This document shows positions 20,492 to 49,089 of a DNA stretch of 64,000 nucleotides, piece by piece. Every line of letters starts with the position of its first letter. The stretch's first letter is position 1. Below the pieces are notes generated by a model. It saw only the letters and a program-made list of their open reading frames with translations. It was not told the DNA's origin and searched no databases. The translations under genes were made by a program, and so were the position numbers. The stretch covers positions 384,001 to 448,000 of the forward strand of contig CAXXXD010000002.1 in assembly GCA_963663385.2 (NCBI GenBank). The letters are read 5' to 3'. This stretch comes from Oceanispirochaeta sp. Lineage in GTDB: Bacteria > Spirochaetota > Spirochaetia > DSM-2461.

Positions 20492-21235
20492 TCAGATTTC
20501 TTTTGTCTCAACTCCCCCAGTCGTCATTTCCTTCTGAATCCTGTGGAAAAAATCAATGCGGTTTGTTGTAATGGAGTAAACTCCCAGTTTTAGAAATCGT
20601 CTCATTTCCTGCTCATTGTCAATGGTCCAGACCATAAGGGGGAGGCTTCGCGTCCGGGCGTAGCTCACCATCTCTTCCCGGCAGTAAAGGTAGTTGACAT
20701 TCAGACCGCAGCAACCCAGTTCGGATGCATTGTACACATTTCGTTCAACCGCAGCCGTATACTGATCTCCCTCACAGTCGAGCTCTTCATCATCCACATT
20801 CAGCAGAACCCGGGCATGGGGCAGATGTTCCCTGATATAAAGGATTTCTTTTCTGCCGCAACCGGAAAAGAGGATCTCTTTTGCCATATCCAGTTTCCTG
20901 ATATCGGAGATTGCCGGATCGGCGGCTTCTGTCTCTTTCAGATCCAGATTCATAAACAGTTTATGTTTATGGCAGAATTCCATGGCCTGGGAGAGGGTCA
21001 GCAATCCCGGCTTAACTGCCAGAAGACGTTCCAGCGGTGCATCTTTGATAAGCAGGGAATTGTCTCCGATCCTAACATCCGGATTATGATGCAGAACCGC
21101 TATTCCATCCGAAGTCCGGCGGACATCCACTTCAACCACATCAGGTTTTTTTTCTGCCGCCAGATCCAGATAGGACTGGCTGTTGGGGACTCTGTCCTGG
21201 GCGCCGCTGTGCAAAGTTACGATTGTATGCATCAT
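20492..21235 (-). CDS. Glycerophosphodiester phosphodiesterase family protein
   Basis: H-S-G, EVDVRRTSDG..VLHH, NLDLKE, VWTID, SITTN. Confidence 0.88.
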   Translation of the reverse strand: MMHTIVTLHSGAQDRVPNSQSYLDLAAEKKPDVVEVDVRRTSDGIAVLHHNPDVRIGDNSLLIKDAPLERLLAVKPGLLTLSQAMEFCHKHKLFMNLDLKETEAADPAISDIRKLDMAKEILFSGCGRKEILYIREHLPHARVLLNVDDEELDCEGDQYTAAVERNVYNASELGCCGLNVNYLYCREEMVSYARTRSLPLMVWTIDNEQEMRRFLKLGVYSITTNRIDFFHRIQKEMTTGGVETKEI

Positions 21236-37122: not shown

Positions 37123-37242
37123 TGTTGTAAGAATATAATAAGGCCGGTTTTTCCCGGCTGTCAAGTTTTATTTGAAAAAACCTCTCCCCGTCCAGGGAGA
37201 GGCGAATGCAGCTGTAATTCTGTTCTAAACCATTCTTTTATT

Positions 37243-37698
37243 TTATGCTTTTATCTTGAGTACAATTTTGCATACCTCTGCCGGTACACCGGAAGGATGG
37301 CATCCCGGTTTATGGGACTCCCCCGGATAGAAAACGGCAAAATCACCCTCCTTCAGCCGGATAGGGGTGTCGGGTATATTTTTATAGAAGAGAATATCCG
37401 AATCGGCATTATAGGGGATTTCGACGGGCAGGTCCTGCCTGTGTGAAACATAAATAACTTCCTCTCCTTTAAGAATATACTGTATATCAATGTATTCTTT
37501 ATGGGCCTCCGGAAGGCATTCCGAGGCTTCCCGTGTTTCGTATTTTTGAATCAGGGCAAAAAGCCTGTCTCCCTCCAGATCATAGCGATCCAGGTTCAGG
37601 CTATTTATAACTGCTTCTTTCAGGAAATCAAAGGCTTTGCCAAACAGAGGATGGCAGGACGCGTAATTATCCGAGTTCTGTATTCTATCTATGATCAT
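37243..37698 (-). CDS. YhcH/YjgK/YiaL (NanQ-like) protein
   Basis: True start is MIIDRIQN (37698); EAHKEYIDIQY, FAVFYPGESHKP, KIVLKI. Confidence 0.9.
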   Translation of the reverse strand: MIIDRIQNSDNYASCHPLFGKAFDFLKEAVINSLNLDRYDLEGDRLFALIQKYETREASECLPEAHKEYIDIQYILKGEEVIYVSHRQDLPVEIPYNADSDILFYKNIPDTPIRLKEGDFAVFYPGESHKPGCHPSGVPAEVCKIVLKIKA

Positions 37699-38877
37699 GG
37701 GTTTCTCTCTCCATTTTCTCCAGTCTTTTATATGTTTTAAACAGAAAACGGGGTATGTGGAAGGGCCCCTTGAAGTGGTTCCCCTTAAGATCAACCTGGA
37801 CAGAACCGTCCCGGCGGAGATACCCGAACCACTCTCCAAACTCTTTATCCGGAAACCGCTGCCAGCTGTAGTCATGAACAAGGTCAAACCACTTTCTATA
37901 ACGGGACTCTCCAGATAAATCGTAGGCCAGGAGAAAGGCATAAACGGCTTCGCAGTGGGGCCACCAGTATTTCATATCCCACTCAACCTGGGCAGGCTGC
38001 TTCCCCTCTATATCCACGAAGGAAAACAGCCCTCCGAATTCTTTGTCCCAGCCCAGTTCCATGGACCAGTCCAGGATGGGAGGGTTTTTTCAATCAGAGC
38101 TTTATCTTTTCTGTATTCCGCCTCTTCAAGGATAAACCAGGCGGTTTCGATGGCATGGCCCGGATTGACGCAGCGCCCCTCGGGCCCTTCAGTTATCTCT
38201 CCCCCGGGACCGACTGTTTCAAGTAAAGCTTTAAGATCGGGTTTTACAAAAAAGCGGAAAAGTTCCTCAATCTGGCTGTCGATCCGGGCGGTGTACTCTT
38301 CCGCGTGTTCCGGATCGGCCTGTCTCAGGATCTGACAGAGGCTGATCAGCATCATGGTCATGGAGTGTCCCCTCATGGGACGGGTTTCCGTATCGATCTT
38401 GGCCGGCATTTTGGGGCTGAGTTCATTGATCAGGAGATAGAGTTCCCTGGCATCCTGACGGGCTCTGTCGTCATCCGAGATCTCCGAATAGGCCGCCAGA
38501 CCTATGGCGGCAAAAACCTCTGAAAACAGATAACGTCTCATAACAAGAGGCTCCCCCTCCCGGGTCACCTCGAAATAGATCCGGCCGTCCGAGGCCCGCC
38601 GGAGTTTCTCCCGGATGAAACGTACGCCGTTAGCGGCGATTTTTCTCCACTCCTCCCGCTGTTCCACCTCTTTATAGAGGGTGGAAAAAACCCACACGGC
38701 TCTTCCCTGAACCCAGCCGCCTTTGTCCGTGGAAAGGGGTGAGCCCTTCCGGTCCAGGTAGTCCATAAAGCCGCCGTACTCCCAGTCTACGGAGTAATTC
38801 TCCCAGAAGGGGACTACATCTTCCGTTAGTTGTTTGTAATAGAAGTTCTTCAATTTTGTTATATCGAGATTATCCAT
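37685..38877 (-). pseudogene. N-acylglucosamine 2-epimerase (AGE family), split by a 1-bp frameshift near 38079 (true lesion or sequencing error)
   Basis: ORF 38008-38877 has DWEYGG, WVQGR and NPGHAIE; ORF 37685-38062 has GWDKEFGG, KYWWPHCE, GEWFGYL and KGPFHIPR; adding one base joins them. Confidence 0.8.
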
Positions 38878-38907
38878 CCTGAATTCTCCATGGTAACGAA
38901 CGTGTTT

Positions 38908-39552
38908 TTATATTTTCATCGCCAGTACTTTATCAGCTACTGAATTCCCAAGAAGAAGAAGCTGGTCCGGATCGTAATGGATTCCATCGGATTCGCTTAC
39001 CTCTATGATTTTGTCTGTATCCAGAAAGGGGACCTTTTTCTGCTCTGCAATATCCCGGTATTTTTCAGAAAAGAGCAGAGACTTTTCATATCCCCCGGCA
39101 AATACACTGTCAGGATCTGTTTCTTTTCGTATCCTGGGAGGAATGAGAAGCAGGACTTCCGGTGGACCCCCATCCTGTCCGCAGGCACTTTTCCGGACTA
39201 AATCGATAAGAGCTCCGATACCGGCTGCAATCACTTCCATGGATAGGGAAAACCTGAATTTGAGATCATTGGTTCCGACCATAAGAATCACCAGATCAAG
39301 GGGTTTATGACTTTCCAGACAGGGGGACAGACAGGTATAACCGTTCCTGTGCTCTTCAACCGGGTCGTCAAATATGGTTGTCCTGCCATTCAGACCTTCC
39401 GGGATGACATGGTACCCCGGTCCCAGTCTTCTCTGGAGAACCGTTGTCCAGCGATCTTTGTAATTGTACCTTTCCCCCAGGGGCGGTTTATACCCCCAGG
39501 TATTGGAATCTCCGTAACATAAAACTGTTTTTGCGGGAGTATCAGATGGCAT
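38908..39552 (-). CDS. SGNH/GDSL hydrolase (candidate O-acetylesterase)
   Basis: GDSNT, GLNG, GTND and DGIH catalytic blocks; located in the nan operon. Confidence 0.88.
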   Translation of the reverse strand: MPSDTPAKTVLCYGDSNTWGYKPPLGERYNYKDRWTTVLQRRLGPGYHVIPEGLNGRTTIFDDPVEEHRNGYTCLSPCLESHKPLDLVILMVGTNDLKFRFSLSMEVIAAGIGALIDLVRKSACGQDGGPPEVLLLIPPRIRKETDPDSVFAGGYEKSLLFSEKYRDIAEQKKVPFLDTDKIIEVSESDGIHYDPDQLLLLGNSVADKVLAMKI

Positions 39553-40468
39553 CCAGAAAGTCCACGCCTTTTATTTCATGTTTATCCTTCAGAATCCTGA
39601 ATTCTTCCTTGAGGATATTTTCCTCTTCTTTGCTGAAGTTGGAAAAAGGACTCCGGCAGTACCCGGCATCAACACCCAGCCAGGAGAGGGCGCGTTTCAT
39701 TATTCCCACATAGTTTTTCTGGGTGGCGTGCATAATGATGATATTGGCTATACGCTGTTTCTCTTCCGCCGTTTTCAGGTCTTTGTTTATCATGGCTCTG
39801 TTGATTGCAATAAACAGTTCCGGCATAAGGTTGTAGAACGATCCGATCAGGCCGTCCGCTCCGAACGAAAGTCCGGACATAGCCATTTCATCGCAGCCGG
39901 AGTAGACAACAAAGTCCTTTCCCAGTTCTTCTTTCATTCTCATTACCTCAAAATGAGAGGTTGCCGTATACTTTACACCGGCGACTCCTTCTATTGTGGC
40001 AAATTTTTTGACCTGCTCAAAGCCGACAAGGCCGGCCAGTGCGATATTGTAAACAATCATGGGAAGGTCTGTAGATTCGGTTATATCCTTGTAATAATGA
40101 AAAATTTCATCAGCATTGAACTTCCAGTAGAAGGGGGGAACCGAAGATATGGCATCCACACCGGCGTCAGCAGCCTGTTTTGCCAGATCGATGGATATTT
40201 TCGTTCCGATAGCTCCCACATGGGCTATAAGGGGAATGCGGCCCTGAACCTGATCCACAACAACCTCTACGACTTTTTTTCTTTCGTCCGGGGTCATCAG
40301 GAAGCCTTCTCCCGTGCTGCCGGTCAGGTAGAGTCCGTCCACGCCTTTATCGAGAAGGTGGTCTACCAGATTCCTCATCCGTTTTTCGTCAAAAATCTCA
40401 TCAATGTCAAAGGGGGTAATCAGGGCGGGAATAACACCCTTGATGTCTTTTACGTTAAATTTAGCCAT
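39542..40468 (-). CDS. nanA: N-acetylneuraminate lyase (DHDPS family)
   Basis: GSTGE, IVYNI, GVKYT Schiff-base Lys, SGCDE (GxDE) and IGSFYN motifs; epimerase and YhcH neighbours. Confidence 0.82.
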   Translation of the reverse strand: MAKFNVKDIKGVIPALITPFDIDEIFDEKRMRNLVDHLLDKGVDGLYLTGSTGEGFLMTPDERKKVVEVVVDQVQGRIPLIAHVGAIGTKISIDLAKQAADAGVDAISSVPPFYWKFNADEIFHYYKDITESTDLPMIVYNIALAGLVGFEQVKKFATIEGVAGVKYTATSHFEVMRMKEELGKDFVVYSGCDEMAMSGLSFGADGLIGSFYNLMPELFIAINRAMINKDLKTAEEKQRIANIIIMHATQKNYVGIMKRALSWLGVDAGYCRSPFSNFSKEEENILKEEFRILKDKHEIKGVDFLDAI

Positions 40469-40479
40469 TCTAAACCTCT

Positions 40480-41490
40480 TTACTCTTTTTTATTATTTAC
40501 AAAATGACAGGCTACGAAGTGTTCTTCATCGTCTGTTCCATGGTTAACCAGTTCCGGTTCTTCGGTTCTGCATTTCTCCTGACAGTAGGGGCAGCGCGGG
40601 TGGAAGGAGCACCCCGAGGGCGGATTTACCGGACTGGGGACATCCCCTTCCAGAATGATCCTTTTCGATTTACGGTCCAGGTCAGCTACGGGGATAGCCG
40701 ATAACAGGGCCTGTGTGTAGGGGTGGAGTTTTCTGCTGTAAAGTTTATCGCTTTCAGAAAGTTCGACAATCTTTCCCAGATACATCACCGCAATCCTGTC
40801 GCTGATATACTCAACCACGCTCAGGTCATGGGTGATAAAGACATAGGTCAGATTCCTTTCCTCTTTCAGTTTTTTCAGAAGTTTGAGAACCTGAGCCTGT
40901 ATGGACACATCCAGAGCGCTTACCGCTTCATCGCAGATAATCAGTTCCGGTTCAATGCTGAGAGCCCGGGCTATTCCGATCCTCTGCCTCTGTCCTCCCG
41001 AAAATTCGTGGGGGTAACGATCCATATACTCCCTTCTCAGGTTTACAGCCTCAAGAAGATCTCCGATGATTTTCCGTCTTTCCTGTCTATCCTTAATCCC
41101 GTATTTTTTCAGAGGATCTTCAAGGGAGCCGAATATGGTAAAAGCCGGGTTGAGGGAGGAGTGGGGATCCTGGAAGACAATCTGAAGTTTTTTACGGAAG
41201 GGGACCATCTCCTGTTCATTGAGCTCTCTCAATTCGGTAACGCCGTTACCGTTATAATAGTTGATCTCTCCCTCGGTAGATCTGACCAGTTTCAGGATGG
41301 ATTTCCCTAAAGTTGTCTTTCCGCAGCCGCTCTCTCCAACGAGTCCCAGGGTTTCCCCTTTATAGATGTCCAGGTTGATACCGTCTACGGCTTTTACATG
41401 CCCGTCCAACTGTTTGAAAACCCCTTTATGAATGGGGAAATAGGTTTTCATGTTTCTCAGGCTGAGGATTACTTCCTTATTTTGAGCCAT
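40480..41490 (-). CDS. Opp/Dpp-type ABC ATPase (OppF-like)
   Basis: GESGCGKTT, FSGGQRQR, HPYTQALL, C-terminal Cys cluster. Confidence 0.94.
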   Translation of the reverse strand: MAQNKEVILSLRNMKTYFPIHKGVFKQLDGHVKAVDGINLDIYKGETLGLVGESGCGKTTLGKSILKLVRSTEGEINYYNGNGVTELRELNEQEMVPFRKKLQIVFQDPHSSLNPAFTIFGSLEDPLKKYGIKDRQERRKIIGDLLEAVNLRREYMDRYPHEFSGGQRQRIGIARALSIEPELIICDEAVSALDVSIQAQVLKLLKKLKEERNLTYVFITHDLSVVEYISDRIAVMYLGKIVELSESDKLYSRKLHPYTQALLSAIPVADLDRKSKRIILEGDVPSPVNPPSGCSFHPRCPYCQEKCRTEEPELVNHGTDDEEHFVACHFVNNKKE

Positions 41491-42490
41491 TTTTCAGTAC
41501 CTCCCTGTAGTGCCAGCACATGACTTTGTGTGAATCACTGATTTCCGCATCCTCCGGACATTCCCGGCACTTTTCAGTGGCATATTCACAGCGGGGATGG
41601 AATTGACAGCCTGCCGGTCTGTCGAAGGGATCCGGCGTAGACCCTTTTATGGGCTCCAGATCCTGATTTTTCCCTTTTCCAAGAACAGGAATGGAGTTGA
41701 GCAGCGCTTTTGTGTAGGGATGTGCCGGGGTTCTGAGGACATCTTCCACTGTGCCGCTTTCCACTATATTGCCCATATACATGACGGCCACGTCATCGGC
41801 CAGTTCCGTTACAACTCCCATATCGTGGGTGATGAGCATAATGGCTGTTTCATGCTCTTTTTTCAGGGTATCCATCAGTTCGAAAATCTGAGCCTGGATT
41901 GTTACATCCAGAGCTGTTGTCGGTTCATCGGCAATCAGTACCTGGGGGTTGCAGGACATGGCCATGGCAATCATGGCCCTCTGCCGCATCCCGCCTGAAA
42001 ACTGATGGGGATACTCCCTGGCTCTCTGTTCGGGAACAGGGATCCCCATATTGCTCAAAAGATCGATTGTTTTCAGGGCGATCTTCCGTGCCGTAAGCTT
42101 TGTATGATACTTCAGGTTTTCTGAAATCTGACTTCCCACGGTGTAAACGGGGTTCAGAGCCGTCATGGGATCCTGAAAAATCATGGCGACTTCTCCGCCA
42201 CGGATGGATCTCATGGTGGGTCCATTCTGTTCCAGCTGATCGATCCGGAGAGTCCCGTGCTGTTTGCTGTAATAGTTGATTTCACCTTCTTCTATCCGGG
42301 ACAGCCGGGGAAGGAGTCCCATAATGGATGCAGCGGTTACGCTTTTTCCGCAGCCGCTTTCTCCCACTATACAGAGGGTTTTACCTTTTTGTACCTTGAA
42401 GGAGACTCCATTTATGGCTTTATTGCATCTCTGGTTCGTATAGAAGAATGTTTTAAGGTTTTTTACTTCAATAATTGTATCGTTGTTCAT
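41477..42490 (-). CDS. Opp/Dpp-type ABC ATPase (OppD-like)
   Basis: [25 protein letters not shown]. Confidence 0.94.
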
Positions 42491-42499
42491 ATCGATTTC

Positions 42500-43429
42500 C
42501 TATCCCTGCTGCGACGGATCGGTAGAATCCCTCAGCCCGTCCCCGATAAAGTTCACACTGAGTACAAAAAGGGAGATCACAGTACCTACGGGGAGCCACA
42601 TCCACCAGCTTTCCTGAAGAATCCTCAGCTCCTGTGCGGCGTTGAGGATATTTCCCCAGGTGGCAATATTCAGGGGAACTCCCAGGCCGAGAAAGCTTAA
42701 AGCCGCTTCCTGCAGGATAAACATGGCCGTACTCAGGGTAATATTGACCATAATGGGACCCAGGGCATTGGGGAGTATATGCTTGTAGCAGATGGTGAAT
42801 GTATTCAGTCCGAAAGCCTTGAGAGCCTGAACATACTCTTCCTCTCTCAGGCTGAGCATTCTGGCCCGGGCCATCCTGTACATGGGACCCCAGCCGGTTA
42901 TGATAAAAATAATCATCAGGTTCATCAGGCTCTGCCCCAGTATGGAAACAAGCAGCAGAACCAGAATTATCTGGGGAAAGGCCATGAATATTTCGGAAAT
43001 TCTCAAAAATATTCCGTCTGTCAGACCGCCTCTGTATCCGGCATAACAGCCGATTCCCACACCGATCACTGCAGCTCCCAGGGCGCTGCCCAGACCGACG
43101 AGGATGGATACTCTTCCTCCAAAAACAATACGGGCGAAAACATCCCGCCCAACCCGGTCCGTACCCAGGATATGATCGGCCGACGGGGCTGTCAGTACGG
43201 TCCGAAGGTCTATCATCAGGGGGTCGTACCGGCAGATAAGGGGGGCAAAAACCGATGACAGAACAATCAGTGTAAAAATCACAAGACCTGCCACGGCCAG
43301 TTTGTTATTCAGCAGTTTGCGAAGCTGTCGGTTCATATTGCTTTTTTTAATTAATCCGGCTTCTTCCTTTGCCCGTATCTTGTCAAAACTCCTGTCGAGT
43401 TTTGTTTTTTTCTTTTTGGTTTTTTCCAT
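42500..43429 (-). CDS. Opp/Dpp-type ABC permease (OppC-like)
   Basis: HILGTDRVGRD, HILPN, LSFLGLG, GDGLRD. Confidence 0.93.
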   Translation of the reverse strand: MEKTKKKKTKLDRSFDKIRAKEEAGLIKKSNMNRQLRKLLNNKLAVAGLVIFTLIVLSSVFAPLICRYDPLMIDLRTVLTAPSADHILGTDRVGRDVFARIVFGGRVSILVGLGSALGAAVIGVGIGCYAGYRGGLTDGIFLRISEIFMAFPQIILVLLLVSILGQSLMNLMIIFIITGWGPMYRMARARMLSLREEEYVQALKAFGLNTFTICYKHILPNALGPIMVNITLSTAMFILQEAALSFLGLGVPLNIATWGNILNAAQELRILQESWWMWLPVGTVISLFVLSVNFIGDGLRDSTDPSQQG

Positions 43430-43437
43430 TTCAATAC

Positions 43438-44397
43438 CTAACTCAATTTAACCCGGGGGTCCATTACTGCCGTCAGGATGTCTACCAGGAAACTGGCAAT
43501 CAGAACAGCAAAGACGGAAAACAGGGCAATCATCATAACCAGGGGAAAATTCTGTCCCCTTACGGCCGTAATAAACTCATTACCGATTCCGGGCCACTGG
43601 AAGATCTGTTCGATCACTACCGCTCCTCCTATCAGGGTGGGAAGTCTGAACCCAACCAGAACGATGACGGGAGTCAGGGCTACCCTGAATCCGTGGACAA
43701 GGTTTACCCGCCATTCGGGAAGCCCCTTGCTCCGGGCTGTTTTTATATACTCCTTATTCATGGAGTCGAGCATGCTGGACCGTGAATAGCGCATGACACC
43801 TGCTGTCATGGTCGCTGCCAGAACAAGGGATGGCATAATTACATGGGGGAAACGGTCCCAGTAGGTTACATACTCCGGCATAAGGCGTCCTCCTACAGGG
43901 AGCCATTTAAGTTTCAGAGCAAAAATCAGAATTGCCACCAGTCCGAAAAAGAACTGGGGGATGGAGACGCCGAGCATTCCCACTACGGTCAGGGCATTAT
44001 CGGCAAATGATCCCTTCTTCACGGCGCTGAAAAACCCCAGAATACTTCCTAAAATCGTTGAAAGGATCAGGGCTATTGCCGAAAGTTCCAGTGTGGCAGG
44101 GAGACGGTCAAACACGATATCCCTTATGGGAACGCCGCTTGAGAGGCTGTATCCGAAGTTGCCCTGCAGAACGCCTCCAAGCCATTTAAGATACCTGATA
44201 ACAAATGGATCATTCAGACCAAGAGACTCTCTGAGGGCATCCATTTTTTCCGGAGTCAATTCGGCTGCTGCTTCAGGATCAATCATGTAGGAAACAGCGT
44301 CTCCCGGCATCAGTTCCAATCCTGAATAGATCATAAAGCTGATAATGATCAGCATGGGAATCAGAATAAAAAGTCTTCTGATAGTGTAAGACAACAT
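43438..44397 (-). CDS. Opp/Dpp-type ABC permease (OppB-like)
   Basis: RLPATLEL, YIKTARSKGL, EQIFQWPGIG, DPRV; ATG at 44397 follows AAGGAG. Confidence 0.93.
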   Translation of the reverse strand: MLSYTIRRLFILIPMLIIISFMIYSGLELMPGDAVSYMIDPEAAAELTPEKMDALRESLGLNDPFVIRYLKWLGGVLQGNFGYSLSSGVPIRDIVFDRLPATLELSAIALILSTILGSILGFFSAVKKGSFADNALTVVGMLGVSIPQFFFGLVAILIFALKLKWLPVGGRLMPEYVTYWDRFPHVIMPSLVLAATMTAGVMRYSRSSMLDSMNKEYIKTARSKGLPEWRVNLVHGFRVALTPVIVLVGFRLPTLIGGAVVIEQIFQWPGIGNEFITAVRGQNFPLVMMIALFSVFAVLIASFLVDILTAVMDPRVKLS

Positions 44398-44481
44398 GTA
44401 TATTACTCCTTTCGGTCTATACATCTTTAAAGGGGGCAGGACTGTTCCTGCCCCATCGTTTTTTAATTGATTCCTGCTACC

Positions 44482-46143
44482 TCAGGGCTTGGGGAACTTG
44501 TTGACATAGAAAAGTCTGGTATAGGGAATATCCACGGGCCGGACAATCATATGGTCCATTGCTTCAAGGGATTTGACATCCGCCACACTTTTGGTAAAAC
44601 CGTAATCCAGTTTTCCCGCAGAGGCGTTCTTGATAACATTGGCATCATTCTCTCCGCTGGGGTACATGACGATCTCATCAATTTTGGCTACTCCTCCGTA
44701 ATAGGATTCAAAGGGAACCGCAACGGTATAGTCGTTCATTTCAATTTTTTCCAGTTTGAACGGGCCGCTTCCTACCGGGTGCTGCCAGAAGGGGTTCTGC
44801 TGAAACTGCAGAGGATCGGAGCCTTCGAAGTACTTCCGGGGAAGGGGAGGAAACTGGGAGAACGTCAGCATCATGTTGGGATCCAGGGTTTCAAAATTAA
44901 TGGTGATGTTCTTTCCGTCGATTACGATACCGCTGATACCGTCTGCGCTTCCTTCAATGAAAGCCCGGGCTCCCTTGATTGCCTTGAAGGTCGCAGAGAA
45001 AACAGAGTGTATGGCAGGTATTTTCAGGGCATATTCAATGCTCCATTTTACATCGTCAGCCGTAATAACGGACCCGTCATGCCATTTGGCATCATTCAGG
45101 GTGAAAGATATGCTCATGCTGTCGCTGGAAATGGAGTAGTCTGAAGCGAGCAGGCCCTTTTTGGCGATTAGAGATTCGTCTGCAGCGATCAGGCTGTCAA
45201 AAAGAACCTTGTTGTACATGAAAATACCGGGGTTGAACCAGGGGTGTTCAAAAAACTCGACAGGCGCCGTATTGGTATAGAGTATCTGCTTGCCCTTGGA
45301 ATCGGGAGTGACAGTCCAGTTCAGGATATTCCAGTCGTATTTATACTGGGCATTTCCGTATCCTCCTCCGTTTCTGTTCAGCCGGTCGCTTTCATAGATA
45401 AAAAGCTGCTGATAGTAGAGGGGTATGGTGGGGAGAATCCCGTTCAGGTATTTCTGCAGTTCGTAGAATGCTTTCTGCTGTTCGGAAACATTGGCTGTCG
45501 CCTGGGTGGCCGCAACCAGCCGGTCAATTTCCGGATCACCGGGGGTATGGGAGTTTCCCGGTCCGCCGGTTGTGAGTCTGTTATAGTACTCATGCATGGC
45601 CAGGGCGGCAATTCCCGCGTAAGCCATATCCCATTTTACGTAGGAAGGACCGGCTACGGGGTCGGAGGGGAGGGTCCATAACTGTTCTCCCAGGTCGCCT
45701 TCAAGCTTTCTGAACTGCATGTCAATGCCGACGGCTGCCAGGTAAGCCTGAGACGCTGTCATAATATCAACGGTTGACTGGTCGCCGTAGTAGTAGACAA
45801 CATCCAGGGTATAGTTTGAATCCCATTTGGCTTCTTTCAGAAGTTTCTTTGCCATATCCGGATCATAGGTGTAGGCGTTCAGCCCCGGTGTTTTCCAGGG
45901 GCCGTTGGGAGTCAGGCTGTCGGCAGCAATAGCTTTGCCTTCCAGGAGGGTTTCTGCAATTCTGTCCATATCTATGGCATAGGCAATAGCCTGCCGGACC
46001 CTGTAATCGGAAAGAGGATTACTGTTCAATCCCTCAATTTGAGTTTCCGATCCTGTTTCTGCTTCCTGCTGTCCTCCTGCCCACATGGTCATGGACATAG
46101 TCAGAAAAAGGCATGAGATCACGAAAAATCCAAGTTTTCTCAT
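44482..46143 (-). CDS. Family-5 ABC solute-binding protein, circularly permuted
   Basis: Family-5 motifs present but rotated: VRQAIAYAID and YDPDMAKKLLKEA come before KWHDG..TADDV and PVGSGPFK. Confidence 0.85.
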   Translation of the reverse strand: MRKLGFFVISCLFLTMSMTMWAGGQQEAETGSETQIEGLNSNPLSDYRVRQAIAYAIDMDRIAETLLEGKAIAADSLTPNGPWKTPGLNAYTYDPDMAKKLLKEAKWDSNYTLDVVYYYGDQSTVDIMTASQAYLAAVGIDMQFRKLEGDLGEQLWTLPSDPVAGPSYVKWDMAYAGIAALAMHEYYNRLTTGGPGNSHTPGDPEIDRLVAATQATANVSEQQKAFYELQKYLNGILPTIPLYYQQLFIYESDRLNRNGGGYGNAQYKYDWNILNWTVTPDSKGKQILYTNTAPVEFFEHPWFNPGIFMYNKVLFDSLIAADESLIAKKGLLASDYSISSDSMSISFTLNDAKWHDGSVITADDVKWSIEYALKIPAIHSVFSATFKAIKGARAFIEGSADGISGIVIDGKNITINFETLDPNMMLTFSQFPPLPRKYFEGSDPLQFQQNPFWQHPVGSGPFKLEKIEMNDYTVAVPFESYYGGVAKIDEIVMYPSGENDANVIKNASAGKLDYGFTKSVADVKSLEAMDHMIVRPVDIPYTRLFYVNKFPKP

Positions 46144-46223
46144 TTGATTTCTCCTTGTATTAAATTGTTGTTTTTGGTACGGCAGATTTCAACTGTTACT
46201 GCCATCAGTCTATAATTCTATTA

Positions 46224-46283
46224 TTGCATACAAATGTATACTGTCAAGAAAAAACTTGATAAATTTAATTTGTAGGTATACAA
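46224..46283. promoter_or_regulatory. Candidate GntR/FadR operators in the divergent promoter region
   Basis: TTGCATACAA-A-TGTATACT (46224-46242) and TGTAGGTATACAA (46271-46283), GTATAC-type boxes. Confidence 0.55.
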
Positions 46284-46308
46284 TGAGTAATAAAATAGTT
46301 AAAAGGTC

Positions 46309-46995
46309 TTGAAAATGGAAAAAGAAAAGGCATCGGTAAAATCCTCATACGAAAAAATGAAAGAACTGATTCTTCATGGAAATATAGAACCGGGGCTGAG
46401 GCTGACGGAGGCGTATCTGGCTGAAAAACTGGATATGTCAAGAATCCCCGTAAGGGAAGCGGTTCAGCAGCTGGTGCAGGAAGGTTTTGTCGAGAGAACC
46501 GGAAAGAACGGTTATCAGATTAAAGAGTATAATGAACAGGATATTATTGACCTTTATAATTACAGAGAAGCTCTGGACGGGATGCTGAGCCGTTTATACA
46601 CACAAAGGGTCGATACGTCCCAGCTGTATTACCTTGAGATGAATGTTGAGGCGATGGAAGAGCACTTTAACAATTTCAATCATGAGATTTTTTCCCAGAT
46701 AGACCTTGAATTCCACAGGATTATCGCCCGGGGTGCCAGAAACCAGTATATGGAGCATCAGCATGAAATCATACTGGAGAAGGTTCTCTATGTGGCGGAT
46801 AAAATCTATCGGATTGATGAGACCAAACACACGGATCTGCTGAATGAAGAAACATACAGAGAGACACTCCAGCAGCATATAGCCATTTTTCAGGCTATCA
46901 AAGAGAAAAACCCCGATAAGGCTGAAGCTGCTGCAAGGGATTCGGTTAACAAAGGTCTGAAGAAAGCTCTGCAGGTCCTTTCGAGAAGGCATTAG
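46309..46995 (+). CDS. GntR-family (FCD) regulator of the nan operon
   Basis: PGLRLTEAYLAEKLDMSRIPVREA wHTH; DLEFH..I...ARN and QH..I FCD motifs. Confidence 0.92.
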   Translation: MKMEKEKASVKSSYEKMKELILHGNIEPGLRLTEAYLAEKLDMSRIPVREAVQQLVQEGFVERTGKNGYQIKEYNEQDIIDLYNYREALDGMLSRLYTQRVDTSQLYYLEMNVEAMEEHFNNFNHEIFSQIDLEFHRIIARGARNQYMEHQHEIILEKVLYVADKIYRIDETKHTDLLNEETYRETLQQHIAIFQAIKEKNPDKAEAAARDSVNKGLKKALQVLSRRH

Positions 46996-47017: not shown

Positions 47018-48151
47018 CTACTCCCGGATGGTTTGAACCATTTTTCTGTAATTTTCCAGAGGCATGGTCGGCGGTATGGAGTGATCCGTATGGCAGATCC
47101 ACCCTCCGTCGGAAAAGGCTTCCTTCCGGCTGATCAGCTCCTTTTCCAGAACCGCCCAGTTGCCGTCCAGGATATGGGCATCGATATTTCCGTAAAAAGC
47201 CAGGCGTCCCCTGTAGCGTTCTTTCATCTCCCGGATATCCATACGGGCGGAAACCTGCAGGGGATTCATAACCCTGACGCCGCACTCTATCAGATCTTCG
47301 TATATCAGTTCCGCATTACCGCAGGAGTGCATCCAGAAATCGATGTCATGTTTTTTCAGAAAGCGTCCCAGTTCCTTCACCATATCCTTATAGGTATCCC
47401 GCCACATACCGGGAGACATAAGGGGTCCCGTACTGCCGCCCAGGTCATCCACCATCAGGTAGCCGTCGGGGATCATGCCTTCTGCCAGGCATCTTTCCAG
47501 AACTTTTACTGTCAGCTCAAAATGGGTTCGGCCCATATCCTTAACCCATTCCGGTTCCAGTGCTATATCCATCAGAAGACTGGCAAAATCCCTGTGCCGC
47601 CAGGTTGCTTCCCAGGGGCCGTAATTTTTAAAGAGAATATAGCGTTCGTTGCTCCTCATTACATCATACTTCCGCTTTGCATCGGCCCATGAGGGGTACG
47701 CATCAAAATGTTCAAAATAGTTGGCATCGTCAATTCTGGCCGGTTCATCAGGGTTGTCCGAAAGTTCCCACAGCTTTTTGTCCCGTTCCCATGCCTCCCT
47801 GTCTGTTGTTTTCACAGACACATAGTGGATAGAACCCGATTTTTTCCAGGGTTTTTCGGCAGTATACCCGTAACGGTCCTCGTATATATAATTCTCTCCT
47901 GAACGGGACAGGATCTTCTGTTCGTACCGGGGAGAGCAGTCAAGGTACATTACGGCAATATCCAGGTTAAAATATTCATCAATGGACTGGCTCATTTTAT
48001 CATCCGGATGGGGCGGATAGAGTGTGATATTTCCGGGAAAACCCTGTTCCCGCCAGCTGGCCGGTGTATCCGTCCAGAAATCTTCATGAAGGGGAATTCT
48101 GTCCGGTTTCTGCCAGTTTATGGCCGCTTTAACTCTTTCCCTCGATGTCAT
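47018..48151 (-). CDS. Uroporphyrinogen-decarboxylase/MtaA-CmuA superfamily protein
   Basis: MTSRERV...PDRIP, DDLG....PLMSP, HSCG, NPLQ, FYGNID, DHSIPP. Confidence 0.85.
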   Translation of the reverse strand: MTSRERVKAAINWQKPDRIPLHEDFWTDTPASWREQGFPGNITLYPPHPDDKMSQSIDEYFNLDIAVMYLDCSPRYEQKILSRSGENYIYEDRYGYTAEKPWKKSGSIHYVSVKTTDREAWERDKKLWELSDNPDEPARIDDANYFEHFDAYPSWADAKRKYDVMRSNERYILFKNYGPWEATWRHRDFASLLMDIALEPEWVKDMGRTHFELTVKVLERCLAEGMIPDGYLMVDDLGGSTGPLMSPGMWRDTYKDMVKELGRFLKKHDIDFWMHSCGNAELIYEDLIECGVRVMNPLQVSARMDIREMKERYRGRLAFYGNIDAHILDGNWAVLEKELISRKEAFSDGGWICHTDHSIPPTMPLENYRKMVQTIRE

Positions 48152-48318
48152 TTTTACCTCCGCAAGATATGTTTTGGATATTAGTACTATCTCACGGATT
48201 ACTGCCGCCTGGTTTGTTATTAATTACCATTATCGCCTTTTTTATGCCATATAGTTCAATATTGTATAATTTCTATTGCCATTATAGTGCTTTCTGTTTA
48301 GGCTTTCCAGAAAGCCAT

Positions 48319-49089
48319 ATGACCAGTTTCAGCAGTATTGTCAGTAAATACGGAAGTTTTCCCGTCCGACACTCCTCCGGATTGATCCGGTGGCCCCATT
48401 GGGATCTATTCCACCTGCATCAGGGGGTGCTTTCAATCGGGTTTGTGAACAGAACCATTGAAGTCACCCGGTCCCAATCCGTGCTTATTCCTCCCGGAAC
48501 AGCTTTCCGGATAGTCAACACCGGCCCGGTGGCAACCGCTTCTGTTCAATACTTTGTTCCCGTACCCGGATCCGCCTTTTCCTCTTCACTTTCCCGCATC
48601 CTTAATCCTTTTCACTATGCAGCTGTAAACAGTCAGATCGAAGCTCATATCAATGAGCTGCTGGAAAACGGTTCCTCCCGTGACAGGCCTGGCAGAAAGG
48701 AGGATCTGCTTCTGGAACTGATTATAGAAAAAATCTTGATCTACCGGTCCGGTAAGGAGAAAACTGTTCCCTGGAAAAGCATGATCCGGGTGTTCAGGTC
48801 ACGGCTTGAGAATCCGCCTTCCATTGAAGAACTGGCCCATTGGGCCGGATATTCTCCCAGCCGGTTCAGGGCGGTCTTTCAGAATGATACGGGTCTGTCT
48901 CCTGCTGTGTTTTTTCAAAAAATAAAAATGGAAAGCGCCTCTGCCATGCTTGCGGAGACAACTCTTCCCGTTAAGGATATCGCCGGTAAACACGGGTATA
49001 AAGAGGTTTCTCATTTTAACAGGGCTTTTACAAAACACTTCGGGATTCCCCCTGGAAGGTACAGAAGGATGAATTTGTTTCAGGGCTAG
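48319..49089 (+). CDS. AraC-family regulator (cupin plus HTH)
   Basis: C-terminal AraC HTH (IEELAHWAGYSPSRF...HFNRAFTKHFGIPPGRYR); start placed at ATG 48319. Confidence 0.85.
   Translation: MTSFSSIVSKYGSFPVRHSSGLIRWPHWDLFHLHQGVLSIGFVNRTIEVTRSQSVLIPPGTAFRIVNTGPVATASVQYFVPVPGSAFSSSLSRILNPFHYAAVNSQIEAHINELLENGSSRDRPGRKEDLLLELIIEKILIYRSGKEKTVPWKSMIRVFRSRLENPPSIEELAHWAGYSPSRFRAVFQNDTGLSPAVFFQKIKMESASAMLAETTLPVKDIAGKHGYKEVSHFNRAFTKHFGIPPGRYRRMNLFQG

Follow-up and report, generated by a model that had tools for sequence, protein, structure and literature searches.

The window, by which we mean the whole 64,000-nt stretch of Oceanispirochaeta sp. DNA that was analysed, carries on its reverse strand a series of genes headed by a circularly permuted family-5 (cluster C) solute-binding protein (SBP) of 553 aa (44482..46143). 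As the initial annotation had claimed, the SBP gene is a single unbroken frame of 553 codons preceded by a ribosome-binding site (AAGGAG, 46151..46156, reverse strand, 8 nt 5' of the ATG), and it is followed by a GC-rich hairpin (44433..44454, reverse strand, -20.1 kcal/mol, z -2.5). This hairpin separates the SBP from the first permease and is likely to act as an mRNA stabiliser or a partial terminator. Beyond it, all on the reverse strand and assigned by Pfam, lie an OppB/DppB-type permease (43438..44424), an OppC/DppC-type permease without an ATPase fusion (42500..43429), and two ABC ATPases with an oligo_HPY domain, one of the OppD type (41477..42490) and one of the OppF type (40480..41490). 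The cassette is followed, still on this strand, by a NanA-like N-acetylneuraminate lyase of the DHDPS family (39542..40468), for which the best NCBIfam match is PRK04147 (268 bits, cut-off 281) and which carries the GxDE and GSxYN motifs. Pfam further identifies a GDSL/SGNH hydrolase, possibly an O-acetyl esterase (38908..39552), an N-acylglucosamine 2-epimerase (AGE / NanE-II; 37685..38877), which is split in the window at 38077, and a YhcH/NanQ-family protein (PF04074; 37243..37698) with a terminator-like hairpin after it (37180-37203). The hydrolase gene was not found beside the other SBP loci examined.

Divergent from the SBP gene is a GntR/FCD regulator identified by Pfam (46309..46995, forward strand). 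Between the two lies a strong sigma-70-type promoter on the reverse strand (46220..46247) with 11 of 12 matches, whose spacer is the imperfect palindrome GTATACA-N3-GTATGC. This promoter-palindrome element is kept in four of five aligned spirochaete upstream regions, and the palindromic spacer is likely the operator of the divergent GntR repressor, which would bind over the SBP promoter. A second TTGTATAC box (46274..46283, reverse strand) overlaps a promoter-like site, also divergent, that would serve the GntR gene. Elsewhere in the window the TTGTATRCAW box has two further exact matches (899-908 and 21223-21232), and it occurs 22 times with one mismatch against 10 expected; the extra matches are possibly sites of the same or another GntR regulator. 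Adjoining the GntR gene, positions 47018-49089 hold a URO-D-family protein and a divergent AraC regulator, and similar URO-D genes were seen beside the cassette at loci L002, L003, L025, L038, L039, L049, L052, L054 and L101.

Pfam, PDB sequence and structure alignments all return the SBP with its halves swapped, which bears out the permutation that the initial annotation had proposed. Against PF00496 (SBP_bac_5) we found the two partial matches in reversed order that it had led us to expect: profile positions 4-203 align to residues 330-546, and positions 196-327 align to residues ~29-150 (genome C2:429694-430059). The total score of 198.8 bits, split over these two stretches, compares with a gathering cut-off of 32.4, and each of the eight other family-5 genes of the same genome is matched by PF00496 in one piece. 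The swap is repeated by phmmer against the PDB, where 8UPI 40-226 corresponds to SBP 311-500 and 8UPI 280-385 to SBP 41-147. An AlphaFold2 model built from 120 homologues (mean pLDDT 91.7, pTM 0.87) was aligned by Foldseek roughly half at a time. VIA-align superposed model residues 278-543 on NikZ (4OET) 1-242 with a Z of 21.2 and an rmsd of 2.8, and residues 38-277 on NikA (3T66) 248-487 with a Z of 19.6 and an rmsd of 2.8, again in swapped order; no structure alignment covering both halves was present among the 50 matches listed. A search of the ESM Atlas with the SBP returned generic SBP_bac_5 clusters only.

The mature chain can be laid out accordingly on the reverse strand. A signal peptide (~aa 1-22, placed by eye and without a conserved lipobox) and a flexible linker, with pLDDT <50 at aa 17-34, occupy 46024..46143. 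By structure and sister alignments, the normally C-terminal half now comes first (aa 41-278, 45310..46023), and the normally N-terminal half comes last (aa 284-553, 44485..45294), its final strand being the one before the cut loop. The three-domain OppA-like fold is kept, the model halves matching NikZ, NikA and OppA with Z 19-21, and the canonical cluster C chain order is absent. Canonical cluster C (PF00496) proteins, such as E. coli DppA (1DPP/8Z1Y), L. monocytogenes CtaP (5ISU), C. jejuni NikZ (4OET) and the Mesorhizobium protein 8UPI, have the same fold of the halves over that Z range (rmsd ~2.8) and share with the SBP both motifs and the five-gene Opp/Dpp cassette with its two permeases and two oligo_HPY ATPases. 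In contrast to them, the SBP has a swapped chain, ~20-26% identity, no DppA R355 loop and a nan context. Together these data establish the SBP as a clean natural circular permutant of the cluster C fold, whose swapped halves cover the whole mature chain.

The initial annotation had allowed for an assembly artefact concealing a normal order, and the assembly is indeed faulty close by in at least one place, lacking a base at 38077. Here, contigs of all four runs carry one extra base, the sole indel common to them, which restores the AGE frame; the split in the AGE gene is a one-base assembly error, and its status as a pseudogene is ruled out. The SBP gene itself is unchanged: single contigs of runs X1, X2 and X4, which represent two samples and two studies (the assembly itself may derive from one of these runs), cover 37200-46500 with zero substitutions and hold an identical SBP gene. 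A contig of run X6, from a slightly different strain, also crosses the SBP joint. With contigs of several runs in agreement and 242 full-length proteins of the same order, an artefact is ruled out and retains a vanishingly small probability.

These 242 proteins also substantiate the permuted subfamily that had been suggested. They come from 506 proteins examined, of which a further 221 are in normal order and 43 are partial, and their lineages are Spirochaetota, Bacillota, Pseudomonadota and KSB3. All 120 of the homologues listed are colinear with the SBP, and the named permuted homologues include members of Spirochaeta, Sphaerochaeta, Breznakiella, KSB3, Bacillus, Clostridium, Maritalea and Paradevosia. 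In a third homologue search 117 of 117 new proteins were permuted, Enterocloster bolteae included. Of 119 new proteins returned by a search from the normal-order protein P0123, 118 have the normal order, and their names point to gut Bacillota. Close normal-order sisters (51-56% identity) were first found by a profile search of 50% representatives and belong to gut Bacillota (Hungatella, Anaerotruncus), a group that holds both orders, permuted in E. bolteae and normal in Hungatella hathewayi. The SBP gene is patchy in its own phylum, being found in 2 of 401 sampled genomes (with a single-protein query and at most three candidates scored per genome) and in 5 of the 41 genomes of close relatives. 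A scan of viral contigs with P0378 and a plasmid search with P0001 returned no match.

The position of the cut was defined by alignment with P0378 (GKH01357.1), a normal-order sister encoded by H. hathewayi. SBP residues 287-552 correspond to P0378 58-326 (51% identity) and residues 43-278 to P0378 333-567 (56%), such that just six residues of P0378 (327-332) separate the two matching halves. Because the alignment brackets this six-residue gap, both new ends of the SBP fall in one loop, as had been claimed, and the joint also lies where it had been placed, at nt ~45271-45318. This joint of the old C-terminus to the old N-terminus (aa 276-291, 45271..45318, reverse strand) consists of a few linking residues with a conserved Asp and Gly; among the 120 homologues listed W276, G284 and N291 are invariant and D281 is kept in at least 90%. 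Its length is 13 residues in 105 and 10 residues in 123 of the 229 permuted proteins in which the joint was read. The corresponding loop is six residues longer in the normal-order sisters than in DppA, and therefore the cut hit an already enlarged loop. Two basic residues, R543 and K518, are invariant among the 120 homologues listed and kept in the normal-order sisters, and by inference are candidates for contact with a ligand carboxylate. They are common to permuted and normal-order sisters together with N304, Y118/Y119 and Q266, and our guess is that this whole set lies at the ligand. The DppA loop with R355, which we take to be the carboxylate-binding residue of that protein, falls where the family profile has a four-residue gap.

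For the origin of the permutation, the halves were aligned separately and trees were built from a selection of 56 rows (32 permuted, 10 close normal-order and 14 outgroup), leaving out near-duplicates, fragments and distant proteins. A first FastTree run gave a scattered permutation with weak support and was superseded by a careful tree. In the latter, the 32 permuted rows and P0126 form one clade (95/90, starred) beside nine normal-order rows (87/85), and the permuted and close normal rows sit in a 100/100 clade apart from the 14 normal-order outgroup rows. The normal-order protein P0126 is nested among permuted rows within a 12-row group (94/93, then 92/73), and 0 of 200 bootstrap trees held the permuted rows as a clade excluding it. 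P0126 also has a short motif in common with this subgroup and no other; it is the sole one of the 221 normal-order proteins with G[TS]GN[IV], which is found in 123 permuted proteins. Its branch is long, at 1.17 changes per column, and the AU test left strict monophyly of the permuted rows unrejected (p 0.196); the tree of the C-lobe half was poorly resolved and needed three changes. The tree favours one gain of the permutation, with P0126 as a likely reversion to normal order, resting on one long-branch sequence.

A doubtful, though arguable, alternative is that the permuted order was gained at least twice from normal-order ancestors sharing a permissive loop, with P0126 as an unpermuted relic. 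The N-terminal-half tree divides the permuted rows in two, with 21 rows in one group and 12, P0126 among them, in the other, and the two groups mostly differ in joint length (13 versus 10). However, the nesting of P0126 in the careful tree would demand at least three gains, and P0057 and P0113 of the 12-row group carry the 13-residue D-x-x-G joint of the main group.

These data allow us to propose a route for the favoured single gain. In an ancestor in common with the gut-Bacillota sisters, a short turn would have linked the old C-terminus to the old N-terminus, which already lay next to it, and the chain would have been reopened in the enlarged loop directly after the strand following the first inter-lobe crossing. 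The likeliest path would start with the gene duplicated in tandem, after which a stretch behind the signal peptide was deleted and the second copy acquired a stop; this would have happened a single time, and the P0126 lineage likely went back. Among the best 150 of 1.84 billion representatives there was no close duplicated intermediate. P0205, the only tandem fusion seen there, is a 1016-aa protein with two family-5 binding domains across whose fusion point the profile reads. It is distant (223 bits), but it shows that a natural protein can have the old C-terminus linked to the old N-terminus.

We evaluated the likely substrate through gene context in 91 related loci, which form 53 clusters at 85% identity; 26 clusters with at least 3 kb upstream and at least 6 kb downstream were informative, and 27 were dropped as too short. 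A NanA-like gene is present in 19 of the 26 (17 with both NanA motifs, one above the NCBIfam cut-off and one below), and some nan-type gene in 24. The motif and NCBIfam criteria were added because the 150-bit threshold is loose, another DHDPS-family gene of the genome scoring 177. The remaining seven informative clusters have no NanA-like gene in the available flanking DNA. Adjacency to nanA is common, then, and falls short of the constancy that the initial annotation had wondered about; its suggested link to sialic or nonulosonic acids gains from the gene context and is not universal. None of the eight other family-5 genes of the genome has a NanA-like neighbour within 12 kb. Among 41 related genomes, the SBP and the NanA-like lyase occur in the identical five and are adjacent in all of them, although the locus and co-occurrence counts are non-independent, since these five genomes are kin and overlap loci already counted.

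The succession of NanA, AGE, a kinase and NagA is an established route of sialic-acid catabolism. The genome, which is 98% complete, encodes NagA and has ROK-family genes elsewhere; NanE was not found in the genome search, a gene set that agrees with this route. A second intact AGE-family gene lies at G000:C3:372088-373254, with 47% identity to the L001 protein. From its gene context, the SBP appears to function in sialic-acid capture, and we consider it likely, with good confidence, that the ligand which the intact permuted protein delivers to its five-gene ABC importer of the Opp/Dpp type is sialic acid, either Neu5Ac or a closely related nine-carbon sugar; the importer family is likely independent of SatABCD. 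Since the permuted chain keeps both lobes and the hinge crossings, closure on the ligand and docking to the permeases should proceed in the normal way. NanA would cleave the imported Neu5Ac to pyruvate and ManNAc, the latter would be epimerised by AGE to GlcNAc, and this would pass to a ROK kinase and then to NagA.

It is also conceivable, although unlikely, that the permutation is real and the ligand is another nine-carbon or 2-keto-3-deoxy sugar acid, or several such across the family. Candidates would include KDN, sulfated or O-acetylated sialic acid, legionaminic acid, pseudaminic acid and 2,7-anhydro-Neu5Ac. The GDSL hydrolase of the window and the score of its lyase below the NanA cut-off are consistent with this, as are neighbours across the family that include sulfatases, GFO oxidoreductases, SDRs, PhyH dioxygenases, aminotransferases and divergent DHDPS-family aldolases. 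Against it, the window and its closest relatives carry the set of NanA-like lyase, AGE and YhcH, which suits an N-acyl-mannosamine product, and the lyase retains its GxDE and GSxYN motifs. We prefer sialic acid as the ligand at this locus. Two large marine clusters have PhyH dioxygenases, SDRs and an amidohydrolase-aminotransferase fusion in place of NanA, and such enzyme sets imply that the ligand may differ across the SBP family.

The gene content of several groups of loci is described here in its own right. In the marine NanA-less clusters (L004-L009, L014, L015, L017-L022, L027, L055 and L062), two or three PhyH dioxygenases occur with SDRs and an aldo-keto reductase. Two aldolases are also present, one a divergent member of the DHDPS family and the other RraA-like, as are a 775-aa fusion of an amidohydrolase with an aminotransferase III and a 260-aa protein without a Pfam match; together these presumably form an uncharted catabolic pathway. 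At L023, L031, L035, L078-L081 and L090, the NanA-like lyase is accompanied by two GFO oxidoreductases, SDRs, a D-threonine-aldolase-like enzyme and aminotransferases, and modified or anhydro sialic acids are possible substrates of these clusters. At L059-L061, L064, L067-L069, L071, L072 and L101, the cassette and NanA-like lyase are surrounded by several sulfatases, in some cases with a formylglycine-generating enzyme, hinting at sulfated sialic acids or sialoglycans.

Automatic names and the best NCBIfam matches are of the Opp and Nik types, which would suit an ordinary peptide or nickel importer merely sitting by nan genes. All NCBIfam scores are far below their cut-offs (Opp4A, 152.6 against 650), and the features of peptide-binding DppA/OppA are absent, the scores lying under the equivalog cut-offs and the DppA R355 loop being missing. 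The nan linkage across the sampled lineages and the exact co-occurrence among relatives also speak against such an importer, which we regard as highly improbable. Because databases label the permuted-SBP importers as peptide or nickel binders, metabolic reconstructions miss them.

In the accessible text of Severi 2021 (PMC8461474), sialic-acid transporters have a single origin within SBP_bac_5, termed ST3, with a TMD-NBD fusion. Its members are given there as H. ducreyi SatA (5Z99), C. glutamicum SiaEFGI and Bifidobacterium NanBCDF, encoded by four genes in which SatC is TMD2 fused to the NBD; in SatA, His333 is at the ligand carboxylate according to the available part of PMC11364026. The SBP resembles ST3 in being an SBP_bac_5 protein of a nan cluster that likely does the same job, and SatA matches at 118.9 bits and aligns to normal-order sister P0123 in one colinear stretch. 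A divergent offshoot of ST3 would account for the shared Pfam family and context, and yet we consider it very unlikely. With the profile of the normal-order relatives, SatA ranks 60th of 86 PDB structures, far under CtaP (209) and DppA (188). Where ST3 has four genes and a fusion, there are five separate genes here, and none of the 67 loci has permease C fused to an ATPase. ST3 was also described from other phyla, namely from Actinobacteria and Pasteurellaceae (PMC8461474). Since SatC-type fusions are missing from all 67 loci and SatA ranks so low, the transporter is probably a further sialic-acid ABC importer independent of ST3, set apart by profile rank and fusion state. As ST3 is the one SBP_bac_5 origin of sialic-acid uptake in the current classification, the permuted-SBP family likely adds another.

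A natural permutation is known for cluster B. As described in the available text of Brautigam 2016 (PMC4990184), T. pallidum TpMglB-2 (Tp0684, 'Cluster Bc') is a naturally permuted glucose-binding protein that binds its ligand and changes shape, and its type occurs in spirochaetes and Gram-positive gut bacteria. This protein provides a precedent for a circularly permuted ABC binding protein. Its swap, in a cluster B fold, relocates three strands and creates a fourth crossing at the hinge; the SBP of the window is by contrast of cluster C, is cut near the middle and has sisters with 51-56% identity. The membrane-tethering idea put forward in that text as a driver of permutation fits poorly here, as a lipobox-like motif is present in 9 of the 120 permuted homologues listed versus 99 of 118 normal-order sisters. 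We found no description of a permuted cluster C SBP, or of this transporter family, in the literature searched, which comprised open-access rather than subscription journals. The surprise is limited, because the permutation probably alters function little. A natural pair that is more than 50% identical and differs in chain order nevertheless lets one measure directly how topology affects folding, closure of the hinge, export and docking to the permeases in the large cluster C family.

The permuted-SBP importer may be the missing transporter of nan-bearing gut Bacillota and marine bacteria. In the part of Ravcheev 2017 available (PMC5583593), no new Neu5Ac transporter was predicted. For H. hathewayi, the accessible text of a 2026 preprint (PMC13228529) documents growth on Neu5Ac and Neu5Gc and the lack of a colocalised nanT; together with its supplement, it predicts an ABC system near nanAKE and leaves the family of that system unnamed. 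P0378 is from the same species, and it is possible that the two are the same locus. More speculatively, and in our view rather unlikely as a whole, sialic-acid uptake would here have arisen independently for a ninth time, in a cluster C importer of spirochaetes, gut Bacillota and marine bacteria whose SBP was permuted once and reverted at least once, and whose marine branches feed an uncharted breakdown of Leg/Pse-type nonulosonic acids.

Two kinds of unusual fusion were seen among the normal-order relatives. In P0207 and P0233 (919-973 aa), a GGDEF-motif domain is joined to a normal-order SBP relative behind a hydrophobic stretch, and these proteins are possible ligand-sensing diguanylate cyclases. 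In P0132, an N-terminus that is HisZ-like by eye is joined to part of a normal-order sister, which is probably a chimeric assembly.
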